Shown: positions 40,477 through 62,298 of the stretch, one piece after another
Numbering within the stretch: the stretch's first letter is position 1
How the letters are laid out: each line of letters opens with the position of its first letter
Origin: a virus
Taxonomy: Duplodnaviria > Caudoviricetes
Length of the DNA stretch: 64,000 nt
Direction: 5' to 3' (one strand)
IMG/VR virus record: IMGVR_UViG_3300024262_000013
The notes under the pieces: generated by a model
Database searches by the model: none
Told to the model about the DNA's origin: nothing
What the model saw: the letters and a program-made list of their open reading frames with translations, nothing else
Position numbers and translations under genes: made by a program

Positions 40477-43308
40477 ATGTCTCAAGTAATAATAAGATTA
40501 ACCTTAAGTTCAAATGCAGTCGGACCATTCAGTATATATACGGGCTCTACCGCAACTACGCCGATTAAAACGGGTGTAACTAGAGACCAAATTATTGCGG
40601 GAGTTGTTTTAGACTTACCAGGTTCAGTTGCAGGTATTCAATACCTTATACTTGTAGTTAATAAACAAGTTGGTTGTAATAATGAAACTGTCTCTAAACA
40701 GGTAGTTGTTTACGAATCGGCAGTCACACCGACTGTTACTCCAACTCTTACTGTTACTCCAACTCTTACTCCAACAAATACAGTTACTCCAACAAACACT
40801 CCGACTCAGGCTCAGGCCACTCCAACGCCAACACAGACAGTAACGATGACTATGACAGTCACTCCAACAGTTACTACTACTCCAACAAACACTATTGATG
40901 TTACACCTACTAATACTCCAACTCAAACTGTGACGGTAACACCGACAGATACTCCAGGTGCTAGCCCAACAAGTACACCAACAAATACAGTAACTCCTAC
41001 AATTACTCCTACAGTAACATTAACGTCTACACCAACTAACACACCAACAGGAACACCATCAACTACTCCAGGTGTTACTCCAACTAACACACCAACAAAT
41101 ACAGTCACTAATACAGTAACTCCTACAATTACTGCAACGGTTACTAGTTCACCAACAGGTACGCCATCCGTTACTCCAACTAACACACCAACAGGAACAC
41201 CAGCAACTACTCCAGGGATAACACCAACAAATACACCAACTAATACTGTAACTCCATCAATAACTGCTGAAGTTACACCTTCAGTAACTGCAACAGTTAC
41301 ACCAACAGGTACACCATCTGTTACCGTTACTAACACACCAACAAATACAGTTACACCGACAGGTACACCATCTGTTACCGTAACTAATACTCCAACAAAT
41401 ACTGTAACTCCAACAGGTACACCATCAGTTACGGTAACTAATACGCCAACAAATACTGTAACTCCAACAGGTACACCATCAGTTACGGTAACTAATACGC
41501 CAACAGTTACTACTACACCGACAGATACTCCAGGTGCTAGCCCAACAGTGACACCAACAAATACTGCGACACCATCCGTTACGCCAACTAACACACCAAC
41601 TAACACACCAACTAACACAGTTACTCCAACAGGAACTGCTCAAGTAACTCCTACAATTACACCTACAAATACTGTAACACCAACTCAAACTGCTGTAGTA
41701 ACTCAAACTCCGACTCCAACCAATACGGTGACACCATCTGCCACTGCTGAGGTAACACCAACACCTTCGGTAACCACTACAATCACACCTACCGCTACTG
41801 CTGAAATTACCCCAACACCTTCGGTAACGACTACAGTTACTCCAACAGGAACCGCTCAAGTTACACCAACAATAACGCCGACAAATACAGTTACTCCAAC
41901 TAATACACCAACAGGTACTGCGTCAGTAACTCCGACTAATACTCCAACAAATACTGTAACTCCAACAGATACTCCATCTGTTACTCCAACAGGTACACCA
42001 TCAGTTACGGTAACTAATACGCCAACAGTTACTACTACACCGACAGATACTCCATCCGTTACACCAACAGGTACCGCGTCAGTAACTCCAACTAACACAC
42101 CAACTAATACTGTAACACCAACTAATACTCCAACTAACACAGTTACTCCAACAGGAACTGCTCAAGTAACACCAACGATAACGCCAACAAATACCGTTAC
42201 CCCAACAGGTACCGCTCAAGTAACACCAACTAATACACCAACTAATACTGTAACTCCAACAGGAACTGCTGCGGTAACATCAACTCCAAAACCAACTATT
42301 ACAATTACGCCAACTAATACTGTAACTCCAACAGTTACTCCAACTAATACTCCAACAGGAACTCCGGCGGTAACATCAACTCCAGAACCAACTAATACGG
42401 TCACTCCAACTAATACTCCAACAGGTACCGCTCAAGTAACACCAACTCCAGGACCAACTAATACGGTTACTCCGACTAATACTCCAACAGGTACGGCAGC
42501 GGTAACTCCGACAATTACGCCAACTAATACTGTAACTCCAACAGTTACACCAACTAATACACCAACAGGAACTGCGGCGGTAACATCAACACCAGAACCA
42601 ACTAATACGGTTACTCCGACTAATACTCCAACTAATACTTCAACGCCGACAAACACTCCAACCAACACCCCAACGACTACACCAACAAATACACCAACAA
42701 ATACACCAACTAATACTGTAACACCAACACCAACACCAACTCAAGGAGTAATACCTAAAGCTTTATTATTTATTATTGAAAGTACTAATAACAACGCATT
42801 TGCGACTTATATGAATAACCAAGGGTCAGGATTCTTTGGGTTTGGTTTCTCAACACCACCATCTACAGGTTCAGATATTGTAACATTTATGGATTGGCCA
42901 GGGTTCTATAACGGTACCGCACCTACTGTAATTGAGGCGGTTATACCTCAAACGTCAGGAGGGGTTGATTCCTTTGGTAATGCAATTACTCAATATAATT
43001 TTGAAACGACTGAAATACCTATAGGAACAGTTTCAGGAGCAGCTTGGTACTATTGGTTAATACCACAATCTCAGTTAGGATTAACATCTAATAGACAATT
43101 AGATATTGGTTATAATATTAATTCTGACCCTGGTGTACTCACTGCTAGGTCTCTGAGTCCATCAATATATAATTTAGCGGGTAATTATAGTGGAGTTAAT
43201 TGGGCGGCCGATACTTATAGAATGTATACTTCGTATGGTAATACCGCATTTAACATCCAGAATAATAATACTGATGATATATATTTTAAAGGTTTGACTG
43301 TCGGATAA
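40477..43308 (+). CDS. Mucin-like Thr/Pro-repeat protein
   Basis: ~80 aa N-terminal domain, ~670 aa of TPT(N/V/G)T repeats and a ~185 aa globular C-terminal domain. Confidence 0.8.
40727..42744 (+). repeat. Coding Thr/Pro repeat tract
   Basis: Includes a 54-bp-period tandem ([18 protein letters not shown], ~41.3-41.5 kb) and an exact 72-nt dispersed copy (41461-41532 = 41983-42054). Confidence 0.9.
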
Positions 43309-43350
43309 AAAATAAGAATTAAAAAAACAAATACTAAGGTGGTTTTAAAC

Positions 43351-43358
43351 TACTTATA
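43351..43358 (+). promoter_or_regulatory. TACTTATA variant of the promoter motif
   Basis: One mismatch to TATTTATA, upstream of ATG 43396. The same variant occurs at 60936. Confidence 0.35.
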
Positions 43359-43395
43359 GTAATAATAATAATAATAAAAATAATAAAGGTAACAA

Positions 43396-44868
43396 ATGTC
43401 GTTTATATATAGAAACCCTAGTTCCGGAGCACCATTACCACAACCAAACGTTGTTTCCCCCGTAGAAATTATAGGGACTAACTTTAGTGTATTAGGTGCT
43501 GGAGGTTATATGGAAGTGTGGTCACTTTCTAATTTAACTTACCAAACTTTTGGGGCGAGTGGGGTTATATATAATAGTGGTAATACTATACCTATTTTTT
43601 ATAGTAAATCTAACCTTGGATTTATACCTAGTAAGTTAACCATTGAAAATGATGGTATAACATCGGGTAGACGTAGATTAGGTATGCAAGTTTACGTTCA
43701 TGAAACAGATACAGTTTATCAGTATATTATACCTAATTATGAAACTTTATTTAATGCTGCGAGTGGAGCGACTGAAACCGACGCGTTCGAAGGAAGTTAT
43801 ACAGTATCCGATAACACAACACCAGGTTTAGCTTTAGTTAACGCATGGTTAGACTCCTCAATAGAAGGAGTTAGTGGAGTTACACGAACAAACGCCAGAT
43901 GGAGAATATTTTATGGTACCGATATTACAGTAACAGGTGGTACCTATAGTAATGGTACAGCCATCTTTACTAATACTACGGGTGGGACATTCAACGTTAC
44001 AGGATTCAGTACGGGTAGTTCTAGTTCTTACACGAGTTGGTTTGCTGAAGGTGATAATCAAGCTCCGGCAGTACCGATTGATGTTGTTGACGGATTTACT
44101 TTAAAGTTTGCTGGCATTATTACATCAGGAGGAGCGGGAATAGCTACCGATTCGGCGATTAGTGCTAACGAGATGACCATTGGTTTAATTAATAATGGTG
44201 GTACTCCTGATTCAACAACATTCTATAGGGGTGATGGGCAATGGATAGTACCTACAGATATTGTGGTTAGTGGTGGTACTTACGATAATGCCTCTGGGAT
44301 ATTAACTTTAAATAGAAGTGATGGTGGTAGTTTACCAATCTCAGGATTCACTACGGGAACTACAGAGGACACTTATGTGACAGGAATGTCGTATAGTCAA
44401 GTATCAAAAGAATTAACTTTAGGGTTAAATGACGGAGTGGATTTTATTGCCACAGGATTTGCCGCTGAGGTAACGGGAGGTACATATAATAGTGGTGGTA
44501 CAATTACATTAAATAATAATGATGGTACCACATCTACAATAACAGGGTTAGGAACCATAAATACTAATATTTATACGGATGACGGTACACTTCAAGGTGA
44601 CCGCGTCGTAGAACAAGACACTCATCACATAACATTTAGTGGTGGAACAGGAGTGTCAATAGGTACAGGAACAACGTCACCTGTATGCGCCTTATTAGAG
44701 TTAGCGAGTGAAAATCAGGGGTTATTAATACCTAGGATGACACAAACTCAGAGAGAAAACATACCCACACCTTTACCTGGGCTTTTACTGTATTGTACAA
44801 ACACTACTGAAGGAGCTGAGGAAGGTTTATATATGTATAAATCTTTAGGATGGGTAAGTATACTATAA
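43396..44868 (+). CDS. Tail-fibre/spike-like protein
   Basis: Gly/Thr-rich VTGGTY..GTLTL repeats. C-terminal NIYTDDGTL and GLLIPRMT..QR..I..P..GL..Y module. Confidence 0.6.
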   Translation: MSFIYRNPSSGAPLPQPNVVSPVEIIGTNFSVLGAGGYMEVWSLSNLTYQTFGASGVIYNSGNTIPIFYSKSNLGFIPSKLTIENDGITSGRRRLGMQVYVHETDTVYQYIIPNYETLFNAASGATETDAFEGSYTVSDNTTPGLALVNAWLDSSIEGVSGVTRTNARWRIFYGTDITVTGGTYSNGTAIFTNTTGGTFNVTGFSTGSSSSYTSWFAEGDNQAPAVPIDVVDGFTLKFAGIITSGGAGIATDSAISANEMTIGLINNGGTPDSTTFYRGDGQWIVPTDIVVSGGTYDNASGILTLNRSDGGSLPISGFTTGTTEDTYVTGMSYSQVSKELTLGLNDGVDFIATGFAAEVTGGTYNSGGTITLNNNDGTTSTITGLGTINTNIYTDDGTLQGDRVVEQDTHHITFSGGTGVSIGTGTTSPVCALLELASENQGLLIPRMTQTQRENIPTPLPGLLLYCTNTTEGAEEGLYMYKSLGWVSIL

Positions 44869-44917
44869 GCCTAACTAATACTAAGAGGATAATAACCAAT
44901 TAAAAAAATATAATAAC

Positions 44918-46951
44918 ATGGCAACAAATGGTTTAAATTTACAAGCAAACGGTTTAAAACTGTCAACGGGAACAGTAGAGAGACAATTCATCACCAGCGC
45001 AGGTGATTTTGGTTTCAACACACTGACTCCGAGTACCGACTTTCACTTTAAAGGTGTATCAGGAGGAACGACAGGGTTTAGAATCGAAAGTTTGGGGGCG
45101 TCCAGTTCAAACACTAATTTTTTAGTCTCGGACGCTAACGGTGTCCTCGAAACACGTAATGATATCGCCGTAGGTACGGTAGTAACAGGAGTAACAGAGG
45201 CATCTAACGTAGTAACAGTCGCGTATAACGATACAGGGGATACATCATTCACTATCGACGCATTAACAAACATGTCCTATGATAGTTCATGGGGACTTAC
45301 AGGTTCAGGTACAGGTACTGTAAATGGAACTTTTGAGCTTCCATTCATTACTTCAGGAACATACAACGCAGGTACAATTACCTTAGCGATAAACGCAGGA
45401 TTAGAATCTGACATTACAATTACAGGTCTCGATGTGGGAACTATGAGTAGTTGGAAAATAGGTTCTACTTCAGGTACAGACCAAGACGTATCAGACGGAG
45501 AGACTGTTGATATAGTAGGTGGTACTGGTATATCAGGTGTAATTGGAGGTACAAGAACAGTTACTTTAACTCTTGACGACACGTCAGTAACTACAGGTTC
45601 TTACGGAGCGGCTAATACGGTAGCAACATTTGATGTTGATGACCAAGGTAGATTAACTGCGGCGTCTGACGTATCAATTGATATTACGGCATCTCAAGTT
45701 TCTGACTTTACGGCAGCATCTGAAACAGCTATCTTTACAACGGCTAACTTTGTAGATACTACAGGAGCGTCAGGTATTAACTTCACAGTAGTTAACGGAG
45801 CATCCGTATCAGGAGTTTTAGTAAACTCATCTATTAATACTGCTGGTACTACAGGTACTGGTTCGGTAGATTTAGGTGGAACAATAACGTACAGTTCATC
45901 TGATAGTTCAGTAGTAATTGCTGATAACGGTTCAGGTACATTTGACCTTACGGTTAACGCGGCATCGGTTTCGGATTCATATGTAACAGGTGGTACAGTC
46001 TCAGGTCAAAACTTAACATTAACTGTAAGTAACGGTAAACCTAACGTAGTAGTTTCAGGATTCAGATTTAATTTATCTGCACAATCAGGAATTAGTAACA
46101 TTGTTGATATGGGTAATACCATAATCTTAAATGGAGGTACAGGTATATCTTCTGTAGGTTCAGCAAGTGATACAGTAACATTCAATCTTGATAATACTAC
46201 GGTAACTGCAGCTTCTTACGGAGCGGCTAATACGGTAGCAACATTTGATGTTGATGCTCAAGGTAGATTAACTGCGGCGGCTGACGTAGGAATCATAATA
46301 ACGTCATCTGAAGTTTCTGACTTTACGGCAGCATCTGAAACAGCTATCTTTACAACGGCTAACTTTGTAGATTCGTCTGAACTTAATTTCACGGTAAGTG
46401 CAGGAGCATCAGTAACGGCAGCGTTAATTGATGGTTCTATTGCAAACGCAAGATTAGTGAATGATTCATTAACATTTGCGGGAACTGCAGGAACAGACTC
46501 AGAGGTGGACTTAGGTGGAACATTAACCTTCTCATCTTCTGATGGTTCAGCGATAATTACTTCAACTGCGGGAACTGATACGATTGACATTACAATTGAT
46601 GGTTCAGTAACATCTCAAAACATCTATACAGATGATGGTACTTTGGCAGCAGATAGAACAGTTACTCAAAGTGGTAATGCATTAACCTTTACAGGTGGTG
46701 ATGTTCAACTTGGTGGTGGAGTTTTCCATTATGATAGGATTAACACTAATGTTGGTATAGGTACAAGTACACCGGTAGTATCAGCGAAATTAGAGGTATC
46801 GTCAACTACTCAAGGTTTCTTATTCCCAAGGATGACATCAGCTCAACGTACAGGTATTGGTTCACCGGCAACGGGACTTATGGTTTACCAAACAGATGCT
46901 GAAGAAGGTGTTTATATTAATAAATCATTTGGGTGGGTACAAGTGATATAA
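44918..46951 (+). CDS. Tail-fibre-like protein with an internal duplication
   Basis: Duplicated GSYGAANTVATFDVD.QGRLTAA fibre segment. The C-terminal GFLFPRMTSAQR..GLMVYQ module is shared with the upstream gene. Confidence 0.7.
   Translation: MATNGLNLQANGLKLSTGTVERQFITSAGDFGFNTLTPSTDFHFKGVSGGTTGFRIESLGASSSNTNFLVSDANGVLETRNDIAVGTVVTGVTEASNVVTVAYNDTGDTSFTIDALTNMSYDSSWGLTGSGTGTVNGTFELPFITSGTYNAGTITLAINAGLESDITITGLDVGTMSSWKIGSTSGTDQDVSDGETVDIVGGTGISGVIGGTRTVTLTLDDTSVTTGSYGAANTVATFDVDDQGRLTAASDVSIDITASQVSDFTAASETAIFTTANFVDTTGASGINFTVVNGASVSGVLVNSSINTAGTTGTGSVDLGGTITYSSSDSSVVIADNGSGTFDLTVNAASVSDSYVTGGTVSGQNLTLTVSNGKPNVVVSGFRFNLSAQSGISNIVDMGNTIILNGGTGISSVGSASDTVTFNLDNTTVTAASYGAANTVATFDVDAQGRLTAAADVGIIITSSEVSDFTAASETAIFTTANFVDSSELNFTVSAGASVTAALIDGSIANARLVNDSLTFAGTAGTDSEVDLGGTLTFSSSDGSAIITSTAGTDTIDITIDGSVTSQNIYTDDGTLAADRTVTQSGNALTFTGGDVQLGGGVFHYDRINTNVGIGTSTPVVSAKLEVSSTTQGFLFPRMTSAQRTGIGSPATGLMVYQTDAEEGVYINKSFGWVQVI
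45598..46372 (+). repeat. 160-bp direct repeat pair, 615 bp apart
   Basis: 45598-45757 versus 46213-46372, with exact runs of 44 nt and 62 nt. Confidence 0.95.
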
Positions 46952-46988
46952 TTAAGATAGAAAATTTCAATATAATTTGTATTGAAAC

Positions 46989-46996
46989 TATTTATA
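46989..46996 (+). promoter_or_regulatory. TATTTATA motif
   Basis: Intergenic, upstream of ATG 47060 and preceded by an 8-bp inverted repeat. Confidence 0.55.
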
Positions 46997-47013
46997 ATTA
47001 AACTATAATTAAC

Positions 47014-47035
47014 GGGAGAGATTAACGTCTCTCCC
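47014..47035 (+). promoter_or_regulatory. GC-rich hairpin in the putative 5' UTR
   Basis: GGGAGAGA-TTAACG-TCTCTCCC with no U-tract, between the promoter motif and the ATG. Confidence 0.6.
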
Positions 47036-47059
47036 AAAGCCAAAAATAAAAAAAAACGA

Positions 47060-48145
47060 ATGGCCACTAACGGAACATATTACAGTAATTCAGGAGGATT
47101 AGACCTAACATCGGGAGGCAGTGCACGAATAAACATTGCCACTGGAGGAGGAATAACCTTTAATGGTGGTTACACATTCCCAACTGCGGATGGAAGTGCA
47201 AATGAAGTCTTAATAACTGATGGTGGGGGTAACGTTACTTTTAGTACGTTACCAAACGCATCACTTGACAATTCATCGTTTAGTGTAACTGCGGGTATAG
47301 GTATTGATACGTCAACCGCTTCCGTATCGTTAGGGGGTAATTTATCGTTAACGATTGACCTTTCAGAACTAACGACTACCACAACTGCGGGTAATGCGGA
47401 CTTCTTTACTGTTGTAAATTCAACTAATAGTCAATATAAAATAGCTCCAGGAAATATTAATATTTCTACATTTAATAATGATGCTGGATTTATTACATCT
47501 GCCGGTAATACCAACATATACAATACCAGTGGGTCATTAACTGCGAATAGAGTGATTACTCAAGGTGGTAATAACTTACAGATAAGAGAAACTACAGCGA
47601 CCGCATCAAATTTAAACATTTATTCAAGTAGTAACGCAACAATTAACACGCCAAGAGTTAGGATTGAGGGGGATAGTTCATATAATACGGTTCTTGAGTT
47701 AAAAATCGATGACAAATCAGTGTCAATTGTTGAGGGGTATAACGAACTTGGGGGATTAGTTTTCTCAGTTGACGGTTCGGGTAACTTAACCGCCAATTCT
47801 AAATCTTTCTTAATTCCGCATCCTTCAAAAGAGGGGTATAGTTTAAGGTATGGTTCTTTAGAGGGTCCTGAACATGGTGTTTATGTTAGAGGTAAAGTAG
47901 ATGGAACGAATACGATTGAATTACCGGAATATTGGTTAGACTTAGTAGATGAAGATACGATAACTGTTCAATTAACTCCAATAGGTTCACACCAAAACTT
48001 ATATGTGAAAGATGTATTAAATAATACTATAGTTATTGGTAACTCAAATATATTAAGTGCAAAAATTAAGTGTTTTTACTTAGTACAAGCCGAAAGAAAA
48101 GATATTGGTAAAATGGATGTAGAATATCCAAATACGATAAAGTAA
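47060..48145 (+). CDS. Tail-fibre-like protein with a conserved C-terminal domain
   Basis: YTFPTADGSANEVLITDGGGN fibre motif. The C-terminal KSFLIPHP...LEGPEHGVYVRG...LPEYW..LV...ITVQLTPIG pattern is common at the ends of phage fibre proteins. Confidence 0.75.
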   Translation: MATNGTYYSNSGGLDLTSGGSARINIATGGGITFNGGYTFPTADGSANEVLITDGGGNVTFSTLPNASLDNSSFSVTAGIGIDTSTASVSLGGNLSLTIDLSELTTTTTAGNADFFTVVNSTNSQYKIAPGNINISTFNNDAGFITSAGNTNIYNTSGSLTANRVITQGGNNLQIRETTATASNLNIYSSSNATINTPRVRIEGDSSYNTVLELKIDDKSVSIVEGYNELGGLVFSVDGSGNLTANSKSFLIPHPSKEGYSLRYGSLEGPEHGVYVRGKVDGTNTIELPEYWLDLVDEDTITVQLTPIGSHQNLYVKDVLNNTIVIGNSNILSAKIKCFYLVQAERKDIGKMDVEYPNTIK

Positions 48146-48172
48146 TATAAAATATTAGATTAAATAGAATTT

Positions 48173-48197
48173 AAAGAGGACTTAGTCCTCTTTTTTT
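48173..48197. terminator. Bidirectional intrinsic terminator
   Basis: AAAGAGGAC-TTA-GTCCTCTTT plus a T run, between convergent genes. Confidence 0.85.
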
Positions 48198-48349
48198 ATT
48201 TCATCATATATCTGAAATAATCTAAGACTTTCATCAAGATTATTTTCTAATATCTCCAACTCTTTAGCGTCTGTAGTTTGAGAAGATGCTTTAACATATA
48301 TGTCTTCGGCTTCATTAACTATTTGTATTATGGTTTTTAAAAGTTTCAT
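48182..48349 (-). CDS. Small hypothetical protein (55 aa), absent from the ORF track
   Basis: Manually translated: MKLLKTIIQIVNEAEDIYVKASSQTTDAKELEILENNLDESLRLFQIYDEIKKED*. It has a strand-matched TATTTATA motif 6 nt upstream and its stop codon lies in the terminator loop. Confidence 0.7.
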   Translation of the reverse strand: MKLLKTIIQIVNEAEDIYVKASSQTTDAKELEILENNLDESLRLFQIYDEIKKED

Positions 48350-48355
48350 CTTGTT

Positions 48356-48363
48356 TATAAATA
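48356..48363 (-). promoter_or_regulatory. TATTTATA motif on the minus strand
   Basis: TATAAATA on +, oriented toward the minus-strand ORF at 48349. Confidence 0.55.
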
Positions 48364-48456
48364 CTCAAAAAAGGTGTTTAGTTCTTTACTATTGATAAAT
48401 TTATATGATTTTTTAGTATACGAATATAAATATAAACTTTTAAAGAAAATAATAAA

Positions 48457-49725
48457 ATGGCACGTAAATCGCAAACAATTTTTGTACAAATAGCCGCCTA
48501 CAGGGACCCTGAATTAGTCAAAACTATCGAAAATATGATAGAAAATGCTAAAAGACCACAAAACCTTGTGTTAGGTATTTGTCGTCAATATCACCCTGAA
48601 GACGGGTTTGATAATTTAGATAAATATAGGGAAGATAAACGATTCCGAATTAGCGATGTCTTGTATACCGACGCTAAGGGGGTATGTTGGGCTAGGAACC
48701 AAGTACAACAATTATATGATGGAGAAATGTATACCCTACAGATTGATTCACATATGAGATTTGCCCCTGATTGGGATGTTGAGTTAATAAAGATGATTAA
48801 GGACCTCCAAAAGAAGGGAATACCAAAACCATTGTTGACAGGATACGTTTCGTCATATGACCCTGATAATGACCCTAAAGGACGAGTACAAGAACCATGG
48901 AGAATGGTTTTTGACCGGTTTATTCCTGAAGGAGCTGTATTCTTTTTACCTGAAACAATACCAGGACATAAAGAACTTGATATCCCTGTACCATCAAGAT
49001 TTTACTCAGCACATATGTGTTTTACTTTAGGTGAGTTTGCTGAAGAGGTACAACATAATCCTGAGTATTATTTTCATGGAGAAGAAATATCAATAGCGGT
49101 AAGAGCATTTACGTGGGGTTATGATTTATTTCATCCACATAAGACACTAATTTGGCATGAATATACACGTAAAGGTAGAACTAAACAATGGGACGATGAC
49201 TCAACATGGGGAGACAAAAATAGTCACTCACATTTAACAAATAGAAAGTTGTTCGGTATGGATGGCGAAAAACAAGAAGGGCATGAGGGTATTTATGGTT
49301 TTGGTACTGAAAGAACATTAAGGGATTATGAGGAGTATTCAGGGCTATTATTCTCTAAAAGAGCGATACAACAACATACGATAGATAAAAATTATCCACC
49401 AAATCCAGGAATAAGTGATTTTAAAAATGAGGAAGAGTGGATAGAAAGTTTTTCATCGATATTTAAACACTGTATAGATGTTGGTTTTGATAAGGTTCCT
49501 GAGAAAGATTATGACTATTGGGTTGTGGCCTTTCATGGTGAAAACGATAAAACTTTATTTAGAAAAGATGCCGATAAAAATGAGATTGATAGAATGATGA
49601 AGGACCCCGAAAAATACTGTAAAGTATGGAGAGAATTCCCAACTGCAGAAAAACCTAAATATTGGGTTGTTTGGCCGTATTCTAAATCTAAAGGTTGGTG
49701 TGAGAGGATAACAGGTAATTTATAA
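48457..49725 (+). CDS. GT60-like (Skp1/polypeptide GlcNAc-transferase-like) glycosyltransferase
   Basis: IFVQIAAYRDPEL..TI, GVCWARNQVQQLY.GEMYTLQIDSHMRF..DWD, LLTGY, FYSAHMCF, YFHGEEISIAVRAFTWGYDLFHP...WHEY all match the GT60/GlcNAc (PF11397-type) pattern. Confidence 0.8.
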   Translation: MARKSQTIFVQIAAYRDPELVKTIENMIENAKRPQNLVLGICRQYHPEDGFDNLDKYREDKRFRISDVLYTDAKGVCWARNQVQQLYDGEMYTLQIDSHMRFAPDWDVELIKMIKDLQKKGIPKPLLTGYVSSYDPDNDPKGRVQEPWRMVFDRFIPEGAVFFLPETIPGHKELDIPVPSRFYSAHMCFTLGEFAEEVQHNPEYYFHGEEISIAVRAFTWGYDLFHPHKTLIWHEYTRKGRTKQWDDDSTWGDKNSHSHLTNRKLFGMDGEKQEGHEGIYGFGTERTLRDYEEYSGLLFSKRAIQQHTIDKNYPPNPGISDFKNEEEWIESFSSIFKHCIDVGFDKVPEKDYDYWVVAFHGENDKTLFRKDADKNEIDRMMKDPEKYCKVWREFPTAEKPKYWVVWPYSKSKGWCERITGNL

Positions 49726-51308
49726 TGGTAGAAAAAATGGCAAATATAGCATTTTATGGTTCACATAATGCAACTGTGGCGGTAGAAAAAGAAGGTAAAA
49801 TAATAACAGTAATTGAGGTAGAAAGATTCTTATCGATGAAAAATGCGGGTTACGCTCAGTATTTGATATCGTACACTAGACCTTACTTAATGAAATATAT
49901 TTTAAAATATATTGAAGACGAATATGGTATTTCAGAATATGAAAACTGTTATTATTTAAATACAGATACGATAGAAAATGGGACTAAAGTTCATTATGAG
50001 AAACTTATATCCGCAAAAAATTACCATAATTCATTACATCACTTAAGTCATGCTGCTTGTGCATTATATCAAACTGATTATCAAGAAGCTTTAATAATTT
50101 CATTTGATGGCGGTGGTAATGATGGATTCTTCAATATATATTTAGCTAAAGATAGAGATAATATTCAATTATTAGAGAAGTATAATTTAGATTTAGGTTT
50201 TCCTTATATGTCTTTTGGGGACTATTTAAGTGATATTCGTAAAGAACCGGCACTTAATATAGGTAATTTAGTTTATTCAGGTAAAATAATGGGTTTATGT
50301 TCTTATGGTAACGTTAATAAAGAATGGTTACCTTATTTTGAGAATTATTATCGAAGAAAACCTGATGGGTTAAACTACAAAGAGTATTTAAATGATTTAA
50401 GTAATGAAACAGGTTTAATCTTTGATATTAATAATAGACTTACAGGTCAAACCGCTTGGGATTTAAGTGCTACTTCTCAAGAGGCATTTGAAAATGTTTT
50501 TATGGAAATGGCTCAACCATTTTTAGATAAGTACCCTAATATTCCATTGATAACTGTTGGTGGATGTGCGTTAAACATTTTATTAAATACCAAATTACAA
50601 AAAATGTTAGATAGACCTGTTTTTGTACCACCAAATCCTAACGATTGTGGTATCGCATCCGGTATGATATTAAATCACATCAAACCTAAAACCGCGATTG
50701 ATTTAACTTATGCCGGTACAGAAGTGTTAGATAAACATACTTTAATGTCACACGTTGAAGAAAGAAGAGCTAAGGAGTTAGATATTAACATATTATCTAA
50801 AGACTTGTCAGAAGGTAAAATTGTTGGAGTCGTAAGAGGAACGTCAGAACATGGACCTAGAGCGTTAGGTAATAGAAGTATTATTTGTAACCCCGCTTAT
50901 CCTGATATGAAAGACACATTAAACGCTAAAGTTAAAAATCGTGAGTGGTATAGACCTTTCGCTCCCGTATGTAGATTAGAGGACGTTGAAAAATACTTTA
51001 ATTTTTCAGGTGAAAGTAAATGGATGAGTTTTTGTCCGACAGTTAGAGAAGAATGGAGAGAAAAATTAACATCAATAACACACGTTGATGGTACGGCTAG
51101 AGTTCAAACAGTTACTTATGAACAAAACCCTTGGTTATATAATTTAATTGGGGAGTTTGAAAAATTATCAGGTATTGGGGTTTTATTGAATACGTCATTC
51201 AACGTTAACGGTAAACCAATCTTGAGTAGATATGCAGATGCGTTAACTGTATACGATAAAACTAAACTAGATTGTTTAGTACTCTCAGATTATTATTTTA
51301 AAAAATGA
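49725..51308 (+). CDS. NodU/CmcH-family O-carbamoyltransferase
   Basis: HNATVA..ERF, HHLSHAA, DGGG, GKIMGLCSYG, GGCALN, PNDCG, EHGPRALGNRSI, KNREWYRPFAP, HVDGTARVQTV and LLNTSFN motifs. Confidence 0.95.
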   Translation: MVEKMANIAFYGSHNATVAVEKEGKIITVIEVERFLSMKNAGYAQYLISYTRPYLMKYILKYIEDEYGISEYENCYYLNTDTIENGTKVHYEKLISAKNYHNSLHHLSHAACALYQTDYQEALIISFDGGGNDGFFNIYLAKDRDNIQLLEKYNLDLGFPYMSFGDYLSDIRKEPALNIGNLVYSGKIMGLCSYGNVNKEWLPYFENYYRRKPDGLNYKEYLNDLSNETGLIFDINNRLTGQTAWDLSATSQEAFENVFMEMAQPFLDKYPNIPLITVGGCALNILLNTKLQKMLDRPVFVPPNPNDCGIASGMILNHIKPKTAIDLTYAGTEVLDKHTLMSHVEERRAKELDINILSKDLSEGKIVGVVRGTSEHGPRALGNRSIICNPAYPDMKDTLNAKVKNREWYRPFAPVCRLEDVEKYFNFSGESKWMSFCPTVREEWREKLTSITHVDGTARVQTVTYEQNPWLYNLIGEFEKLSGIGVLLNTSFNVNGKPILSRYADALTVYDKTKLDCLVLSDYYFKK

Positions 51309-52192
51309 AAACAAAAATAGTTACATTCGTATATTTTGGCATAAATGACTTTCCTTTTTATGGTCACGAACCACAGGCTAGGTGGGATAGATATAAAAAT
51401 TCACTTTTACAATTATCAGAAATGGGTTTACCTATAGTTTGTTATTGTGGTAGTAACGTTTACCCTGAATTAAAAAAATTACTTGAAACCAATGAGGTAA
51501 AAAATATAGATTTAAGAATTAGGGAATTAGAAGATTTTCGTCATAGTAAAAGTATGATTAAGATTAAAGAAAAAAACCCTGAAAAATTTAACTTTTACTT
51601 AGAAGTCGGATGGGCTAAAATTGCCTTAATGGAAGAGGAAATGGAAGATGATTTAGATTATTTATATTGGGTCGATATTGGTTTATCTCATGTTGGGTTA
51701 TTTCCTTTTAGATTTAATAGTAATGGTGATAAGATTACAGGTACGTCAACAAATAAATATAGATACACTTTCGATAAAATTTTTAATACAGATACTTTTA
51801 AAAAAATTAATAATTGGGTAGGTGATAAATTAATTAATTTAACGAACACTCAATTTTTTCATAATGCAACTACACTTAATAATACTTTAGATAAAAAACA
51901 CAAATATAAGTCTTTAACCGTTGGTGGAATTATTGGGGGACATGTTAGTAAACTTCCTAACTTTTTTAAATCATTTGAAGAATACTCTCAAGTATGTTTA
52001 GAAAAAGAGTATTTACTAAATCATGAAGCGATGATGTCTACAATCTCTTACGATAGACCTGAGGATTATGAAACATTTATATTTGGAACATGGTATCACG
52101 AGGATACACCAATGAAACATGTTACAACAGAATTTTTAAACAGTAAAAAGAGTTTTTATAAATTCTTTGAGGAAATAGAAAATAAAAAATGA
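51305..52192 (+). CDS. HtrL/YibB (WlaTC)-like glycosyltransferase
   Basis: YLYWVDIGLSH, VGGIIGG and NHEAMMS parallel the FWLDAG / GGFFGG / TEESLFS motifs of the HtrL-like domain in the 52742 gene. Confidence 0.55.
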   Translation: MKTKIVTFVYFGINDFPFYGHEPQARWDRYKNSLLQLSEMGLPIVCYCGSNVYPELKKLLETNEVKNIDLRIRELEDFRHSKSMIKIKEKNPEKFNFYLEVGWAKIALMEEEMEDDLDYLYWVDIGLSHVGLFPFRFNSNGDKITGTSTNKYRYTFDKIFNTDTFKKINNWVGDKLINLTNTQFFHNATTLNNTLDKKHKYKSLTVGGIIGGHVSKLPNFFKSFEEYSQVCLEKEYLLNHEAMMSTISYDRPEDYETFIFGTWYHEDTPMKHVTTEFLNSKKSFYKFFEEIENKK

Positions 52193-52218
52193 AAGAATTA
52201 GAAAATAAAAAAAAATGA
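52189..52218 (+). other. 9-codon mini-ORF (MKELENKKK) linking two ATGA overlaps
   Basis: The ATG at 52189 overlaps the upstream TGA, and its own TGA (52216-52218) overlaps the ATG at 52215. Confidence 0.5.
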
Positions 52219-52742
52219 AAGATTTAAATCAAATTTTCCCACAATTAAAAGACCTCGACACCAACTTAAATAATTTAGACGGTTGGGCACTATCTATAGA
52301 GTGTTTTTATTGGATATATAATAATATTGAAAAAGGTTCAAACATTATTGAGATAGGTAGTGGTCCTGGAACGATGGAGTTATCTAAACACTTCAACACA
52401 TATAGTTTAGAACATCAAGAGAGATTTACAAAATTAGCACCTAAAGCTAATTATATACTAACAGAATTAGTAGATGGTTGGTACGAACCTGAAATAGTTT
52501 TTAATTCTTTACCTGAAGAATATTCTCTTATTATTGTTGATGGTCCACCTAACTTAGGTCAAGAAAAAACTAGAAATAATATTAAAAAGTATTGGGATAG
52601 GTTCGATACTTCAGTACCTATAATTATGGATGATACACATAGACAAGATGAATATGAATTTGCTATTGAAACTGCAAAAGAATTAAATAAAGAGTGGACT
52701 CAATACGAAGGGTGGCAAAAAAACTTTATAGTGTTGACATAA
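52215..52742 (+). CDS. Class I SAM-dependent methyltransferase
   Basis: IIEIGSGPGT (motif I), YSLEH, LIIVDGPP and IIMDDTHR motifs. Confidence 0.8.
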   Translation: MKDLNQIFPQLKDLDTNLNNLDGWALSIECFYWIYNNIEKGSNIIEIGSGPGTMELSKHFNTYSLEHQERFTKLAPKANYILTELVDGWYEPEIVFNSLPEEYSLIIVDGPPNLGQEKTRNNIKKYWDRFDTSVPIIMDDTHRQDEYEFAIETAKELNKEWTQYEGWQKNFIVLT

Positions 52743-55126
52743 TGATAGAATTAAAAAAAACAGATTATTTTAATGATGCTCTACATCATTTGGGTAAAAA
52801 GGGTGAGAAATTATTCACACTTAATATCGGTGCGATGGATGGGATTACTTTTGATGAGATGTCAGGGTATATAAAAATGTATAACTTTAAAGGGTTATAT
52901 GTTGAACCTATTCCTGTTTATTATGACTTATTAAAAGAAAATTATAATGATGATGGTAATTTATTTGAAAATAGTGCAATTTCAGATTATGATGGAGAAA
53001 TAACAATGTTAACCATTGATAAATCAGTTATTGACCAAGGATTAGTTCATCCAGCATTTTTAGGGATGAGTGCGGTATACCCACCAAAGAATGGACTAGG
53101 TAGTGAAGGTGACCGTGAAGTGGTTGAAAAATACGGAAAAAAAATTACAGTACCATGTATTACCTTCAATCATCTATTAACTAAACATAATATAGATAGT
53201 TTTGATGTTGTTAAAATTGATGCCGAAGGACATGATTATAATATTTTTAAACAAATTGATTTAAAAAAATATAGACCTAGAATTGTAAGAGCGGAATGGT
53301 CAAGTATTGAGGATTTTGAGAAAACATCTTTGATAGAACAATTAAATAGTGCGAATTACATATATGGTATCGAAGCAGATGATATTGTTGGTATTACTAA
53401 AGAGTTATATGATGAGATTTACAATAAAAAAGAAGAAATAATGGTAGATATGAAAAGTAATGGGGTTACTATAGTCACAGGTTTATGGGATATAAAAAGA
53501 GATGGACTTACAGAAGGATGGTCACGTAGTTATGAGCATTATTTAGAGAAGTTTTCACAATTATTAGAGACACCTAATAATATGATTATTTTTGGAGATA
53601 AAAAATTAGAAGAATTTGTCTTTAAAATTAGACAACATGAGAATACTCAATTTATTGTTAGAGACCAAAGTTGGTTTAAAGGAGAATTTTATGAACCAAT
53701 TCAAAAAATAAGAACTAATAAAGAATGGTATAATCAAACAGGATGGTTAGGGGAATCAACCCAAGCTAAATTAGATTTATATAATCCATTAGTGATGTCT
53801 AAACCATATCTTTTACATGACGCAAAAATTATGGATAAATTTAAATCCACTCATTTATTTTGGTTAGATGCCGGTATCACCAATACTGTACATAACGGAT
53901 ATTTTGTTAAGGATTTATTTTTAGGTAAGATGGAAAAAACTGACAAAATGACGTTCATTGCCTTTCCATATGAGACTAATAGTGAAATTCATGGGTTCGA
54001 ATATAATAAATTAAATGAATTGGCCGGTGGTAAAGTAAATAAAGTATGTAGAGGGGGGTTTTTTGGGGGACCAGTTGAAGATATATCTGATTTTAATACG
54101 GAATACTATAATTTAATGAAAAGTACTCTAAAAGACGGATATATGGGTACAGAAGAGTCTCTATTTTCGATTCTTTTATATCGTTACCCCGAAAATTACC
54201 AATACTATCTTATAGAGGGAAATGGGTTGATTAATAAATTTTTTGAAGATGTTAAAAATGATAATCATGTAGTATTAAGTGAGTCAAAAACTATATCATT
54301 AAAAAATGATTTAGATATTAATAATACTGCACTCTATGTGATAACATTTAATAGTCCTAATCAGGTTAAAACATTAATAAAATCAATGAAAGAATATGAT
54401 GAAGATTTTGTTACTAAACCAAAATGGATTTTATTAGATAATTCAACAGATTTAAGTACCACACCAGAATATGAGAGATTATGTGAAGAGTATGGGATTA
54501 CTCATATTAAAAAAGATAATTTAGGTATCTGCGGTGGTAGACAATGGGTTGCTGAACACGCCGAAGAGAATGGGTACGACTACTATTTCTTTTTTGAAGA
54601 CGATATGTTTTTTTATCCTAAGAAAGGTGAGGTCGGTAAAAACGGTTTTAATAGGTTTGTTAGTGGGTTATATAGGAAATCCTTACAAATATCTAAAAAA
54701 AATAATTTTGACTTTTTAAAATTATCATTTAGTGAATTTTACGGAGATAATAGAGTTCAATGGGCTTGGTACAATGTACCTCAAGAATTTAGAGAAATTC
54801 ATTGGCCCGAAAAACCAACATTACCTGTCCAAGGTTTAGACCCTAATGCTCCTAAAACTAAGATAACTAAAATAGATACATTTAACGGTGTACCGTATGC
54901 TCACGGGGAAATTTACTATTGTAATTGGCCTCAAGTGGTATCTAAATATGGTAATAGAAAAATGTTTTTAACTGAAAAATGGTCTAGACCATTTGAACAA
55001 ACATGGATGTCATATATATTTCAAGAAACTGTAAAAGGTAATATTAATCCAGGAATTTTACTACTTACTCCAACTGAACATGACCGATTTGACCATTATG
55101 ATGGTAAATTAAGAAAAGAGTCATAA
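52742..55126 (+). CDS. Fusion of an FkbM-family methyltransferase, an HtrL/YibB-like GT and a GT2-like GT
   Basis: Likely ATG at 52742 (TAATG overlap). NIGAMDG, YVEPIP, VKIDAEGHD (FkbM); VTIVTGLWDIKR, FWLDAG, GGFFGG (HtrL-like); YVITFN, LLDNS, NLGICGGR, YYFFFEDDM (GT-A fold). Confidence 0.8.
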   Translation: MIELKKTDYFNDALHHLGKKGEKLFTLNIGAMDGITFDEMSGYIKMYNFKGLYVEPIPVYYDLLKENYNDDGNLFENSAISDYDGEITMLTIDKSVIDQGLVHPAFLGMSAVYPPKNGLGSEGDREVVEKYGKKITVPCITFNHLLTKHNIDSFDVVKIDAEGHDYNIFKQIDLKKYRPRIVRAEWSSIEDFEKTSLIEQLNSANYIYGIEADDIVGITKELYDEIYNKKEEIMVDMKSNGVTIVTGLWDIKRDGLTEGWSRSYEHYLEKFSQLLETPNNMIIFGDKKLEEFVFKIRQHENTQFIVRDQSWFKGEFYEPIQKIRTNKEWYNQTGWLGESTQAKLDLYNPLVMSKPYLLHDAKIMDKFKSTHLFWLDAGITNTVHNGYFVKDLFLGKMEKTDKMTFIAFPYETNSEIHGFEYNKLNELAGGKVNKVCRGGFFGGPVEDISDFNTEYYNLMKSTLKDGYMGTEESLFSILLYRYPENYQYYLIEGNGLINKFFEDVKNDNHVVLSESKTISLKNDLDINNTALYVITFNSPNQVKTLIKSMKEYDEDFVTKPKWILLDNSTDLSTTPEYERLCEEYGITHIKKDNLGICGGRQWVAEHAEENGYDYYFFFEDDMFFYPKKGEVGKNGFNRFVSGLYRKSLQISKKNNFDFLKLSFSEFYGDNRVQWAWYNVPQEFREIHWPEKPTLPVQGLDPNAPKTKITKIDTFNGVPYAHGEIYYCNWPQVVSKYGNRKMFLTEKWSRPFEQTWMSYIFQETVKGNINPGILLLTPTEHDRFDHYDGKLRKES

Positions 55127-55154
55127 TAAAATGTTACAAAATCGCTTATGCGAT

Positions 55155-55162
55155 TATTTATA
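55155..55162 (+). promoter_or_regulatory. TATTTATA motif
   Basis: Upstream of ATG 55181 and abutting a 6-bp inverted repeat. Confidence 0.55.
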
Positions 55163-55180
55163 TAGAAAGTATTTAAGTAT

Positions 55181-58100
55181 ATGGTTGGATATAAGGTAGG
55201 TCAAAAAGTTTTATTGCTTGACGGGTCTTTTTTGAATATTGAAAATGTTCAAGAAGGTATGTTATTGCAAACTATTGCTTTGCCCAATGATGATATAACT
55301 AAAGATGGTTTACAATGGTCCACTAAAGAAATAAAGGAGTTACGATATGTTTCTTCTGAAGTTAACAAAGTTTCCAAACAAAATAATGAATTTATTAGTA
55401 TTAATGAATTATCATTAAATGATAAGGAAATATTGGTATATGATACCGTAGATTCGAAGTTCGAGTTTAAAAATGTTAAAGACTTATCCTTAGGTGATGA
55501 TTATAAGTTAGTAAGAATTGATGGAGATAGTATACTATTGGAAAATATTTATAGTTATGAAAAATCTAATAACGAAGAAGATTTAATATCTATAAGTTTA
55601 AATGGTCCTTTTCATTATCTTTTAGATGGGTACATAGTACATAATGATGTTCCAAACATTTGTGTTCGTAATTGTTCTAATAATGCGATAGCATGTATTG
55701 GTAATACCTCGACACCACCTTTAGTGGCGGGTAGTACTGGGTTTATAGATAATTTTGGTAATTGTTGGTTAGCGATTAGTGACTGCAATAGTTGTACCCC
55801 TACCGTATCATTTACAGGTACAATACAGTCGGTATGGAATGGTAGCTCATGTCTTGATTGTCCTAGTAGTGATGTAACACCAACCCCAACACCAACCCCA
55901 ACAATTACACCTACAATAAATAATGGTCAATTTCAGTCTTGTTGTCCTCCTTTTGGCTCTACTAATCTTTCATATACAAATGGGTCTATAAATGATATAT
56001 TTATTTATAATGGTGGTTGTTATAAACTCATAAATTCTTTGGGTTTCGGTGGTCCAATGGCTACATTGTCCACAGAATTTGCCGATTGTGAAAAGTGTGT
56101 TTTGGAAAATCCTTGTTCTGAACCAACTCCGACTCCAACCAATACTCCTACTCAAACTCCGACTCCAACCAATACTCCTACTCAAACACCTACAAATACC
56201 CCGACTATAACTCCTACGGAAACAGTAAGTTATCGTGAATTACGAATTAGAGATTGTTGTACTGATACTTTAGAACTATCTATTATGGTTCCTGACGCTT
56301 TAATTAATAATTTTATTACCACTGGTGCTGCATTCATTTTTAATGATTGTTGTTATTATGCGTTTGCTACAGGTGGAAGTGGTAGTGATGGTGTTAGAAA
56401 CACATCCGATTCAACTGATTGTAATAAATGTCAGACGACGCATCCATGTGCCGAATGGTTAATAGATGCTATTGATTGTTGTGATGAATCGATAACGTTA
56501 TCAGAAAAATTCATAGTGGCTTGTTCCGACCCACTAATAAAACCTAGTGTATTATACGGCGATGTTTTTACTTATAATGGTACGTGTTGGGATATTGTAA
56601 GTGAAACCCAAACAACAGGAGCAACAATAACGTTAGATATTAGTGACTTTTATAATGACTGTCCTTCTTGTGTGACTTGTCCAACAAACACACCTACCAA
56701 TACTCCAACAAACACACCGAAACCAACAGTAACTCCATCTGTAACTACTACTCCATCTGTAACTACAACTCCAACAGATACTCCAGCTGTAACTAAAACT
56801 CCAGCTGTAACTACAACACCAACAGGTACTCCAGCTGTAACTAAAACGCCATCAGTAACAGTAACTCCAGCTGTAACTACAACACCAACAGGTACTCCAG
56901 CTGTAACTAAAACGCCATCAGTAACAGTAACTCCAGCTGTAACTACAACTCCAACAGATACTCCATCTGTAACAGTAACTCCATCTGTAACTGTAACTCC
57001 ATCTGTAACTACAACTCCAACAGATACTCCATCAGTAACAGTAACTCCAGCTGTAACTACAACTCCAACAGATACTCCATCAGTAACAGGTACTCCAGCT
57101 GTAACTACAACGCCATCTGTAACTGTAACACCAGATGTAACTACAACTCCAACCAATACACCTACTCAAACGCCAACAGGAACTGCTCAAATAACTTTGA
57201 CTCCAACTAACACCCCTACTCAAACGCCAACTAATACACCAACAGGTACTCCTTTATCTACTCCTGGTGTAACACCTACTAATACTCCGACAGGAACTGC
57301 TCAAATAACTTTGACTCCAACCAATACACCTACTCAAACGCCTACTAATACTCCAACTAATACTCCAACTGAAACGCCGACTAATACACCTACCGAAACA
57401 GCTAACGTAACTGCTACACCTACTGAAACACCTACAAATACCCCAACTAATACTCCGACCAATACAGTAACTCCAACAGGTACTCCTCAAGTAACTCCAA
57501 CGAATACCGTTACCCCAACAGGTACGGCAGCGGTAACTCCAACTAATACTCCGACCAATACAGTAACTCCAACAGGTACTCCATCAGTTACACCTACAAA
57601 TACCCCAACAAATACTGTAACTCCAACAGGAACTGCACAAGTTACTCCGACAATTACACCAACAAATACGGTTACTCCAACTAATACGGTTACTCAAACT
57701 GTTACGCCAACTAATACGCCAACTCAGACTGTTACGGTGACTCCAACGGATACTCCAGGTGCGAGTCCAACATCGACACCTACTAATACGGTAACCCCTA
57801 CAGTTACACCAACAAATACACCAACAACTACTGTAACTCCTTCAATAACTGCTGAAGTTACACCAACAGGTACTCCTTCAGTAACAGTAACGCCAGATGT
57901 AACTGTAACTCCATCAGTAACAGTAACTCCATCAGTTACACCTACAAATACACCAACTGAAACTGCTAACGTAACTCAAACTCCTACTGAAACTCCAACT
58001 AATACTCCAACAGGTACTCCTGGTGTAACACAAACTCCTACTGAAACACCAACTGAAACACCAACCAATACGCCTACTAATACACCAACAGGTACTCCTG

Positions 58101-61002: not shown

Positions 61003-62298
61003 ATGACTACAGTATCAGTAAATACGGCAACAGGAACATCACCCTTTCAAATATGGGTGGCAAATGGTTGTGGAGTTAATGCTCAACAAACTTATATTAG
61101 TCAAATTATTAGTGCGGATATCCCATATACATTTAACTTACCATCTCAGTATGAAAATTCTCCATTCTGTGTTAAAGTAATTGATTCGGATAATTGCGAA
61201 GTTTGTGATTGTTTTGGTTTTGGTCCGACGCCAACACCTTCAGTAACCGCAACGGTAACTCCTACGGTAACTGTTACTCCAACACTGACTCCGACACCTA
61301 CCGTTTCTGCACCATGTCCAACTCCGACATATTACTATGGTTCATTTACAGGTAACGGATTTACCTCATCCGCAACATATACCTTATCTCCAACATTACA
61401 CAATGGAAGAGCTCAGTGGGTCTCACCAAGTAACGGAACAATACAGTGGGTTGGGAATAGATGGGAAGTGTCATTTTATAATTTAGCTGGTGTTTTATAT
61501 TATAACCTAAATATGACTATAGATTCACCTGATACTATAAATTGGGTATTACAGGGATGTGCCGCGGATTTCCAATGTGCGGTTTCATTCACAATTGGAG
61601 GATGTGGTTTACCGACCCCAACACCTACTACTACTCCAACAATGACTCCAACCCCTACCGTCACATCAAGTCCGGGAGCTAGTCAAACACCAACACCTAC
61701 GAATACGCCAACCAATACGCCAACCAACACTCCGACTCAAACACCAACTAACACACCTACCAATACTCCAACAAATACTCCAACAAATACTCCAACACCA
61801 ACTAATACCCCAACGACTACTCCAACGACTACCCCAACGACTACTCCAACGACTACTCCAACTAATACGACTACTAACACACCGACTCCAACAGTTACTC
61901 CTTCATCGACAAGAGGCGTGATTTATAACTTCTATTATACGATGGCATTAGGTAGTAGTGGTATGAGTAATGGTAAAATAATGTTTAGTCCGAATGGTTC
62001 AATCAGTAGCTCAACGTTATCGATAACGGGGGCGACAGATATTTTAGTTGCGAGAGAAGAAAATGGTTCTATCGATAGAACTGATGAACTAACAGGTGTA
62101 ACTACAGGTAGTGAATTTTTAATTACATCCATAGATAATCCTTTTGAAAATGTTGTATTAACAGTTGATGAGCCCGACCCACTATTCAGCGTAGCCCAAA
62201 GTTTTGTTAGGTTTCCTATATTAACTTTAGAAAGTTACACAAATGAGCCACCTTTTAGTGCTGGTGAATCATTAGAATTAACAATAACCTTACAATGA
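61003..62298 (+). CDS. Thr/Pro-repeat protein with small globular domains
   Basis: PT tracts at ~61.23-61.32 kb and ~61.61-61.91 kb. TACTTATA lies upstream at 60936-60943. Confidence 0.75.
   Translation: MTTVSVNTATGTSPFQIWVANGCGVNAQQTYISQIISADIPYTFNLPSQYENSPFCVKVIDSDNCEVCDCFGFGPTPTPSVTATVTPTVTVTPTLTPTPTVSAPCPTPTYYYGSFTGNGFTSSATYTLSPTLHNGRAQWVSPSNGTIQWVGNRWEVSFYNLAGVLYYNLNMTIDSPDTINWVLQGCAADFQCAVSFTIGGCGLPTPTPTTTPTMTPTPTVTSSPGASQTPTPTNTPTNTPTNTPTQTPTNTPTNTPTNTPTNTPTPTNTPTTTPTTTPTTTPTTTPTNTTTNTPTPTVTPSSTRGVIYNFYYTMALGSSGMSNGKIMFSPNGSISSSTLSITGATDILVAREENGSIDRTDELTGVTTGSEFLITSIDNPFENVVLTVDEPDPLFSVAQSFVRFPILTLESYTNEPPFSAGESLELTITLQ

Follow-up and report, generated by a model that had tools for sequence, protein, structure and literature searches.

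Why should two different genes of one phage genome encode the same 34-residue peptide in largely different codons? The question is raised by IMG/VR virus record IMGVR_UViG_3300024262_000013, a 64,000-nucleotide (nt) stretch of viral DNA (hereafter the window, meaning the whole stretch analysed), in which two genes, A and B, each contain a long tract rich in threonine and proline (Thr-Pro tract) that includes the peptide. A sequence-only reading of the window had proposed that the two copies are old, that they are held under strict purifying selection at the amino-acid level, and that the peptide is a sequence-specific recognition site, such as an acceptor motif for glycosylation enzymes or an assembly site. 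Our analyses point to another history, in which the pattern is probably explained by a conserved Thr-Pro module together with recombination with a diverged phage lineage. Relatives for comparison were gathered from IMG/VR and from metagenome scans, and provided 68 orthologues of gene A with identities of 42-99% in the N-terminal domain (N-domain). They include a close relative of the window (gene A in L004 and L023-L025; gene B in L003/L007), the diverged lineages L005 and its group, L002/L016, R2 (L001/L006) and R4 (L008), and a TARA scaffold, L041, whose N-domain is 85% identical to that of the window. The genes, tracts and two codon versions of the peptide (alpha and beta) are located as follows.

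40477-43308, plus strand: gene A (P0002), an open reading frame (ORF) whose translation has 943 amino acids (aa), with a small N-domain (aa 1-82), a Thr-Pro tract and a 175-aa C-terminal beta-rich domain
40699-42780, plus strand: Thr-Pro tract of gene A (aa 75-768; Thr 43%, Pro 18%), with tandem arrays of periods 18-144 nt
55181-60895, plus strand: gene B (P0003), 1904 aa, with Cys-rich modules, a mosaic Thr-Pro tract and a large C-terminal region that has a weak virion/tail-fibre match in PHROGs
56645-58786, plus strand: main Thr-Pro tract of gene B (aa 489-1202), with blocks of different repeat styles
40900-41001, plus strand: the 34-residue peptide (34-mer) in codon version alpha, found only at this site of gene A, also in the close relative (L004, L023-L025; 1 nt difference)
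57701-57802, plus strand: the 34-mer in codon version beta, in a patch locally rich in G at third codon positions (G3); identical in gene B of the close relative (L003/L007) and 2 nt off in gene A of L041

Translation of both stretches confirmed that the same peptide is encoded in gene A and, 16.8 kb away, in gene B, with 16 of 34 codons and 18 of 102 nt different and no amino-acid difference. The switch between serine codon boxes that had been noticed was also present, at Ser25, which is AGT in alpha and TCG in beta; Ser22 is AGC in alpha and AGT in beta. The description of all differences as synonymous holds for the end states only, since AGT and TCG cannot be reached from each other by single synonymous steps and a non-serine intermediate is required; by Nei-Gojobori counting, 15.5 of the changes are synonymous and 2.5 are non-synonymous, the latter from the box switch. 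Position 25 is the one variable position of the motif, being AGT in alpha and in the L005 orthologue, TCN in the B and L002 copies, and ACT (Thr), AAT (Asn), GTN (Val) or CCA (Pro) in other copies, and a Thr codon lies one step away from AGT and likewise from TCG. From these codons, the shared serine at position 25 is best read as a parallel or reverted change and not as unbroken conservation.

The identity of the peptide as a whole is not an artefact of chance or composition. In 300 simulations per model, the longest peptide shared between A and B was at most 12 residues for independent and identically distributed shuffles, and at most 19, 27 and 29 residues for Markov models of order 1, 2 and 3, respectively; a match of 34 residues was reached only at orders of 5 and above, which memorise the real sequence. 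Simulated repeats of the same composition, which the sequence-only reading had named as a possible way to undo its observation, therefore leave that observation standing. Nor is the 34-mer the only match of its kind between A and B. They also have 32 residues in common from A546 and B803 (18 of 32 codons different), 31 residues from A373 and B804 (15 codons different), and dozens of 15-25-mers in which 30-65% of codons differ.

42112-42207, plus strand: A side of the 32-residue A-B identity (A aa 546-577)
57587-57682, plus strand: B side of the same identity (B aa 803-834)

The evidence on how beta came to lie in gene B is provided by L041. Its gene A carries the exact 34-mer with beta's codons, differing at 2 of 102 nt from beta and at 16 from alpha, and it is the sole carrier of beta found other than the close relative. 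The similarity extends beyond the 34-mer, and most of the long A-B matches fall within B aa 750-886.

57440-57837, plus strand: A-like mosaic block of gene B, ~400 nt, with 90-98% nt identity to gene A of L041; holds the 34-, 32- and 31-residue A-B identities

Within this block, window positions 57692-57837 match L041 3906-4051 over 146 nt with 96.6% identity, and window positions 57440-57687 match L041 5214-5473 over 260 nt with 90% identity. In addition, gene B of the close relative matches L041 4125-4317, again in gene A, over 193 nt with 96.9% identity. The additional shared blocks were recovered with megablast settings; blastn with default scoring and an identity filter missed them, as they were swallowed by long low-identity alignments. 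A three-way alignment revealed sharp edges of block identity, the left edge in L041 abutting a small Cys-containing insert of a type known from gene A of R2. The swapped piece is not flanked by conserved nucleotide "linker" motifs. The high identity of the block has to be seen against the background divergence of the window and L041, whose proportion of synonymous differences (pS) is 0.52 in the N-domain of A and 0.60 in the upstream neighbouring gene, with 75-77% nt identity in the flanking gene. Alpha and beta have a pS of 0.51, which equals this background, and the 16 silent differences are therefore those expected between lineages rather than the result of ageing in place. An old paralogue should have behaved differently: beyond the B site of the close relative (0 differences), beta is nearest to gene A of L041 (2 differences versus 18 to alpha). 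Judged by these nucleotide identities, the beta block is shown to have been laterally exchanged between lineages.

In four runs from four studies, error-free unitigs span the junctions in L041 (215 nt, 3780-3994; 198 nt, 3969-4166), and at least 95% of the sampled 31-letter words of L041 3700-4300 (601 bases, patch included) were present in 14 runs from five studies. The arrangement in L041 is thus not an assembly slip at the junctions, and that of the window is reproduced in independent assemblies (L003/L007, L004 and L023-L025). A further observation concerns the tract of gene B downstream of beta, where window 57803-58500 and L007 6939-7600 have wholly different tract blocks, with 40-59 nt differences per 50 codons versus 0-1 upstream. 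The block of the close relative matches gene A of L041 at 97%, and block replacement in the tract of gene B is therefore recent and repeated.

If beta arrived by exchange, is selection still needed to account for the unchanged peptide? It is, because there are no amino-acid differences at the pS that separates alpha from beta. The ratio of non-synonymous to synonymous substitution rates (omega, or dN/dS) was ~0.04 for the 34-mer by the Nei-Gojobori count given above, versus 0.12 for the N-domain next to it. When the window was compared with its close relative, omega was 0.19 for the Thr-Pro tracts versus 0.40 for the globular parts of the same proteins (likelihood-ratio test, p=0.03), which supports the purifying selection at the amino-acid level that had been proposed. 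It is not exceptional, since ordinary virion proteins at the same silent divergence have identical runs of 34-39 residues (a 987-aa protein, 86% identical) and of 116 residues (a 302-aa protein). The constraint on the 34-mer is real and about as strong as in conserved virion proteins, and the peptide is not an outlier among them. What can be kept of the idea of old copies under strict purifying selection is the deep silent divergence and the unchanged protein, whereas the notion of two paralogues ageing in this genome has to be given up, as the B copy lies in an L041-like block.

Comparison with the relatives showed which part of the peptide recurs. The close relative is separated from the window by ~0.03 synonymous substitutions per site (dS) and has each copy with the codons of its own version (1 difference in alpha, 0 in beta), and the differences between their tracts are mostly unit insertions or deletions and replaced blocks. 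Among the diverged lineages, a core around the sequence PGASPT is what remains.

40939-41001, plus strand: 21-residue conserved core of the 34-mer (A aa 155-175), centred on PGASPT; identical and at the same place in the L005 group
41503-41565, plus strand: second PGASPT segment of gene A (aa 343-363), with Val at the variable position; kept in gene A of L005
58514-58579, plus strand: second PGASPT segment of gene B (aa 1112-1133)
61651-61716, plus strand: degenerate PGASQT variant in the next Thr-Pro protein (431 aa)

In the L005 group (pS 0.47-0.63 versus the window), the C-terminal 21 residues of the 34-mer are unchanged and follow a common TVTMTMTV landmark, with 12 of the 21 codons different between L005 and the window, whereas its first 13 residues have not been conserved. 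Gene A of L005 likewise retains the second PGASPT segment (21 residues, 10 codon differences), and the two segments are the longest exact matches between the tracts of the window and L005. Only a 13-residue core is found in L002, three times, within a plain (TPTN)n tract, and the motif is absent altogether from R2, R4 and more distant homologues. Among ~60 homologues, the exact 34-mer is confined to L041 and the close relatives; 5 mismatches separate it from the next best homologue, and 8-12 from most. The part that recurs is restricted to the 13-21 residues around PGASPT, and a core of the form PGA[ST]PTxTPTNT was found in the tracts of 16 viral contigs. When IMG/VR was scanned for the exact strings of alpha and beta, the close relative was the only match, and a homologous-protein search with the N-domain returned only two distant homologues, both without the motif. 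Therefore, free substitution of the peptide in homologues, which the sequence-only reading had named as evidence that would count against it, is largely what was observed. The gene-A orthologue of L063 and L064 (match at 3201-3440) ends after 80 residues, with only the N-domain in frame; the gene may be split or frameshifted, or the repeat may have been misassembled.

The codons of the core also carry information on descent. In the A/B family, the PGAS motif occurs in 19 distinct nucleotide versions, and every one of them has AGY for the serine of "GAS", compared with 35% AGY in the tract background; the unrelated lineages L011 and L015 have TCN. This invariant serine box marks the PGAS modules as homologous and, by that codon evidence, the Thr-Pro modules of the A/B family share descent. 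Their silent sites retain almost no other trace of it, because the 16 codon differences in the 34-mer compare with 18.2±2.8 expected for independent draws from the tract codon usage. The 34-mer of gene B is no closer to the L005 or L002 versions, and all are mutually saturated.

The history that we propose would be as follows. The window comes from an uncultured marine T4-like phage in which A and B are virion-module proteins, with tracts of ~700 residues that consist of homologous repeat modules of one family. One such module would be the 34-mer, lying around the best conserved landmark of the family, the 21-residue stretch, with alpha at its home site in gene A and beta in the ~400-nt A-like block of gene B. 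That block would have been exchanged by recombination with the gene-A tract of a diverged phage lineage, either into or out of the lineage of the window, and the 16 silent differences would represent inter-lineage divergence brought into one genome. The unchanged peptide would have been kept by purifying selection about as strong as that on conserved virion domains. The tracts themselves are probably extended virion-fibre stalks whose glycosylation is initiated with O-linked N-acetylglucosamine (GlcNAc). Potentially, selection acts on the regular spacing of Thr and Pro, and the Gly-Ala-Ser core may briefly interrupt the Thr pattern, for instance as a hinge or spacer, rather than serve as a sequon for the GT60-type enzyme encoded between A and B.

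Several points weigh against this history. Repeat assemblies from metagenomes can be chimeric, and the unitigs span both junctions but not the whole L041 gene. The module in L041 is not at the site orthologous to alpha, and to say that beta is simply L041's alpha would be too simple. In addition, a patch of G-ending codons at 57665-57790, in which G3 is up to 0.27 versus 0.03-0.10 elsewhere in the tract and ACG makes up 5 of 13 Thr codons, coincides with beta; the beta patch is rich in G3 in the contexts of the window and L041 alike, which hints at a third source. If change were uniform at the rate of the N-domain, ~0.1 identical runs of 34 residues would be expected per tract, and the module is somewhat better conserved than its surroundings. 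Finally, the glycosylation of the tracts is putative.

What of the recognition site that was originally proposed? In that explanation, A and B would hold an old duplicate pair that arose within the genome of the window and was kept identical as a specific site, either a glycosyltransferase acceptor or an assembly site. The candidate enzymes are encoded between the two genes.

48457-49725, plus strand: GT60-type polypeptide GlcNAc-transferase (PF11397, E 9e-64), a candidate modifier of the tracts
49725-55126, plus strand: glycan-tailoring cassette, comprising a carbamoyltransferase, proteins of 295 aa and 175 aa, and an FkbM methyltransferase fused to an HtrL/TAGT-like protein

The unchanged amino acids at such silent divergence would fit a recognition site, as would the position of the 21-residue core at the same place in a diverged orthologue, the recurrence of its PGA[ST]PTxTPTNT form across contigs, and the distinct tailoring cassette in the motif-bearing lineage (a comparison of about one lineage versus two). 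However, the nearest relative of beta is gene A of another lineage, most of the ~60 homologues are without the 34-mer, its first 13 residues are unconserved even in the L005 group, and residue 25 varies among copies (S, N, T, V and P); the invariance among homologous substrates that is expected of an acceptor motif was not found. The enzyme also argues against such a role. GT60 is 91-98% identical in three relatives, two of which are without the peptide, and is 91-92% identical in G002 (R2) and G005 (R4); neither GASPT nor any near match to the 34-mer was found in gene B of L006 and L008 or in gene A of L001 (R2/R4). As the enzyme is so well conserved where both the peptide and the PGASPT core are absent, the 34-mer is not a sequon needed by GT60, and a sequence-specific acceptor motif is unsupported. 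Furthermore, the only described GT60-family acceptor checked is a plain Thr-run peptide, on which a GT60-type enzyme of Trypanosoma cruzi was assayed (PMC3769586). We consider an old pair preserved as a recognition site to be unlikely.

A small opening for specific recognition is provided by the likeness of A and B within a genome at the level of 8-mers and by the carbamoyl/methyl-transferase cassette of the motif-bearing lineage, which is replaced in R2/R4. A bolder idea, for which we see quite a low probability, is that Thr-Pro modules with landmarks such as PGASPT form a transferable fibre code that is read by lineage-specific tailoring enzymes or sets the assembly register, with phages trading whole modules from one fibre gene to another so as to match their enzymes. 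If true, this would account for the "dialect" that A and B have in common without shared nucleotides, for the presence of the landmark in the one tract segment that was found to have been exchanged recently, and for the separate carbamoyl/methyl-transferase cassette of the motif-bearing lineage. The adjacent GT60 cluster suggests that the tracts are glycosylated; in that case, the initiating enzyme would need a generic Thr-Pro context and not this peptide.

Another explanation concerns the nucleotides rather than the protein. Direct repeats 17 kb apart could recombine and delete the intervening genes, and silent differences might have been selected because they reduce nucleotide identity. T4-type phages recombine avidly, and no nucleotide run shared between A and B is longer than 29 bases. 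However, shared runs are no shorter than in synonymous shuffles of both tracts (29 nt versus 27.1±2.9), and shared 20-mers (88 versus 40±14) and 15-mers are slightly in excess. Moreover, the pS of alpha and beta equals the genome-wide inter-lineage value, for which no acceleration is needed, and beta is stable across lineages (98% identical). Selection for recoding is thus very improbable.

Chance or convergence in low-complexity sequence is the least credible explanation of all, for although Thr makes up half of the residues and short words such as TPTNTPT recur everywhere, no shared peptide was as long as 30 residues in 300 simulations at each of the Markov orders 1-3, the invariant AGY box marks common descent, and the nucleotide identity of beta to L041 indicates copying and not convergence; chance is refuted for the whole peptide, and only residue 25 (AGT versus TCG) is likely to be a parallel change.

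By its gene content, the window belongs to a T4-like phage, as indicated by homologues of gp32, a RecA/UvsX-like protein, RNase H, a DnaB/gp41-like helicase, both ribonucleotide reductase (RNR) subunits, and the baseplate proteins gp25 and gp6. It has 34% GC and all its genes in one direction, and A and B are located in the structural module. No match was obtained for the region by megablast against GenBank phages, and a distant search matched RNR genes only. SprB repeats (PF13573) are present in two neighbouring large proteins (34120-40365 and 62321-63958). The SprB repeat is a domain typical of Bacteroidota gliding adhesins, and its presence may hint at the host group.

The tracts of A and B comprise 694 and 714 residues, respectively, with 42-43% Thr and 18% Pro in imperfect tandem units of periods 12-144 nt. 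Two features of mucin-like domains are present, namely a long tandem tract of Thr and Pro and, alongside it, a gene for a PF11397 polypeptide N-acetylhexosamine transferase (by family match only). A Pfam search with the folded parts of A and B gave no match, and a PHROGs search gave weak virion/tail-fibre matches in the C-terminal region of gene B only. A confident AlphaFold2 model was obtained for the C-terminal domain of gene A (aa 769-943; 42781-43308), with a predicted local distance difference test score (pLDDT) of 91.6 and a mostly beta structure. Foldseek returned no match to this model in the PDB at E <= 0.001, and the VIA-wide comparison gave a best Z of 4.6, to generic beta-sandwiches, with no convincing fold match; the model may represent an undescribed fibre-tip fold. 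The single-sequence AlphaFold2 model of A residues 1-260 had a pLDDT of 46 and was uninformative on the structure of the tract.

Sharing of 8-mers between the A and B tracts of one genome was 0.37-0.52, versus 0.11-0.33 with orthologues elsewhere. The two tracts of one genome are closer to each other in composition and 8-mers than to their orthologues, and their codons are nevertheless randomised. The same likeness within a genome is found in R2, where both genes have a (TPTN)n dialect, and the dialect of the R4 tracts is likewise (TPTN)n and differs from that of the window. The close relative has the same tailoring cassette as the window, whereas in R2 and R4 (L006 30-1650; L008 1-860) the cassette is replaced by a 332-aa protein and a 204-aa methyltransferase-like protein, and the HtrL-like protein is without FkbM. 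Cassette type thus tracks tract dialect in this small sample, which amounts to an anecdote, being effectively one lineage versus two. Small Cys-containing inserts (~20 residues, …SGLGCELVVEGSF…) interrupt the tract at L041 3840-3900 (A aa 213-228) and in gene A of L001 (aa 218-235 and 257-275); gene A of the window has none. Antisense ORFs run over the tracts at 40923-41618 and 56650-57156 of the window and at L001 3834-6011 (all minus strand, up to 725 aa in L001), neither of those in the window spanning the 34-mer of gene B. These are most likely a by-product of codon composition and not genes.

Our results indicate that an identical peptide with different codons in one genome can arise via recombination that imports a diverged version of a conserved module. 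This is a caution for dN/dS estimates from repeats, since such a pattern need not reflect long selection on two resident copies. In addition, the long Thr-Pro tracts of these marine phages are not free-drifting linkers, given that their omega is lower than that of the folded parts and that their landmark is kept through synonymous saturation; they evolve chiefly by the gain and loss of units and by block exchange. We found nothing directly relevant in the literature on phage mucin-like proteins or on silent-site divergence in repeats.

The linkers of bacterial and fungal cellulases are rich in Pro and Thr and O-glycosylated, and it is their length and composition, rather than their sequence, that are conserved. 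The tracts of A and B resemble them in Thr-Pro composition and as extended spacers between folded domains, but specific modules have stayed conserved here despite synonymous saturation, and the phage tracts are tenfold longer. In the staphylococcal Ser-Asp repeat proteins, GlcNAc is added by SdgA and SdgB to the dipeptide repeat of a cell-wall adhesin. They too have a long low-complexity repeat with varied synonymous codons, including both serine boxes, whereas the phage tracts have a higher-order module with a unique landmark that is exchanged laterally. In polyubiquitin units and histones too, strong purifying selection is recognised from peptides that are identical while their codons differ almost at random; these proteins are folded and universally conserved, unlike the 34-mer module, which is confined to a few phage lineages. 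The mucins of T. cruzi and their GT60 alpha-GlcNAc-transferases (PMC3769586) resemble the phage system in having Thr-rich repeats beside a PF11397/GT60 enzyme, and a Thr-run acceptor fits a generic requirement. However, the phage tracts belong to a virion protein in a bacterial cytoplasm, their glycans are putative, and their Thr residues alternate with Pro, Asn or Val and form no runs.

The tail-fibre genes of T-even phages offer another parallel, as segments of gp37 and gp38 are reportedly swapped between phages. As in that mosaicism, a short segment of a long fibre-type virion gene is near-identical between diverged phages and has sharp edges. The differences are that the segment in the window is a low-complexity Thr-Pro module and not a receptor-binding domain, that it is carried by gene A in one lineage and by the non-orthologous gene B in the other, and that the flanking nucleotide motifs are absent. 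The pattern is explained by known processes, namely purifying selection on a module and the mosaic recombination typical of phage fibre genes, to which the window adds module exchange between the tracts of different genes.

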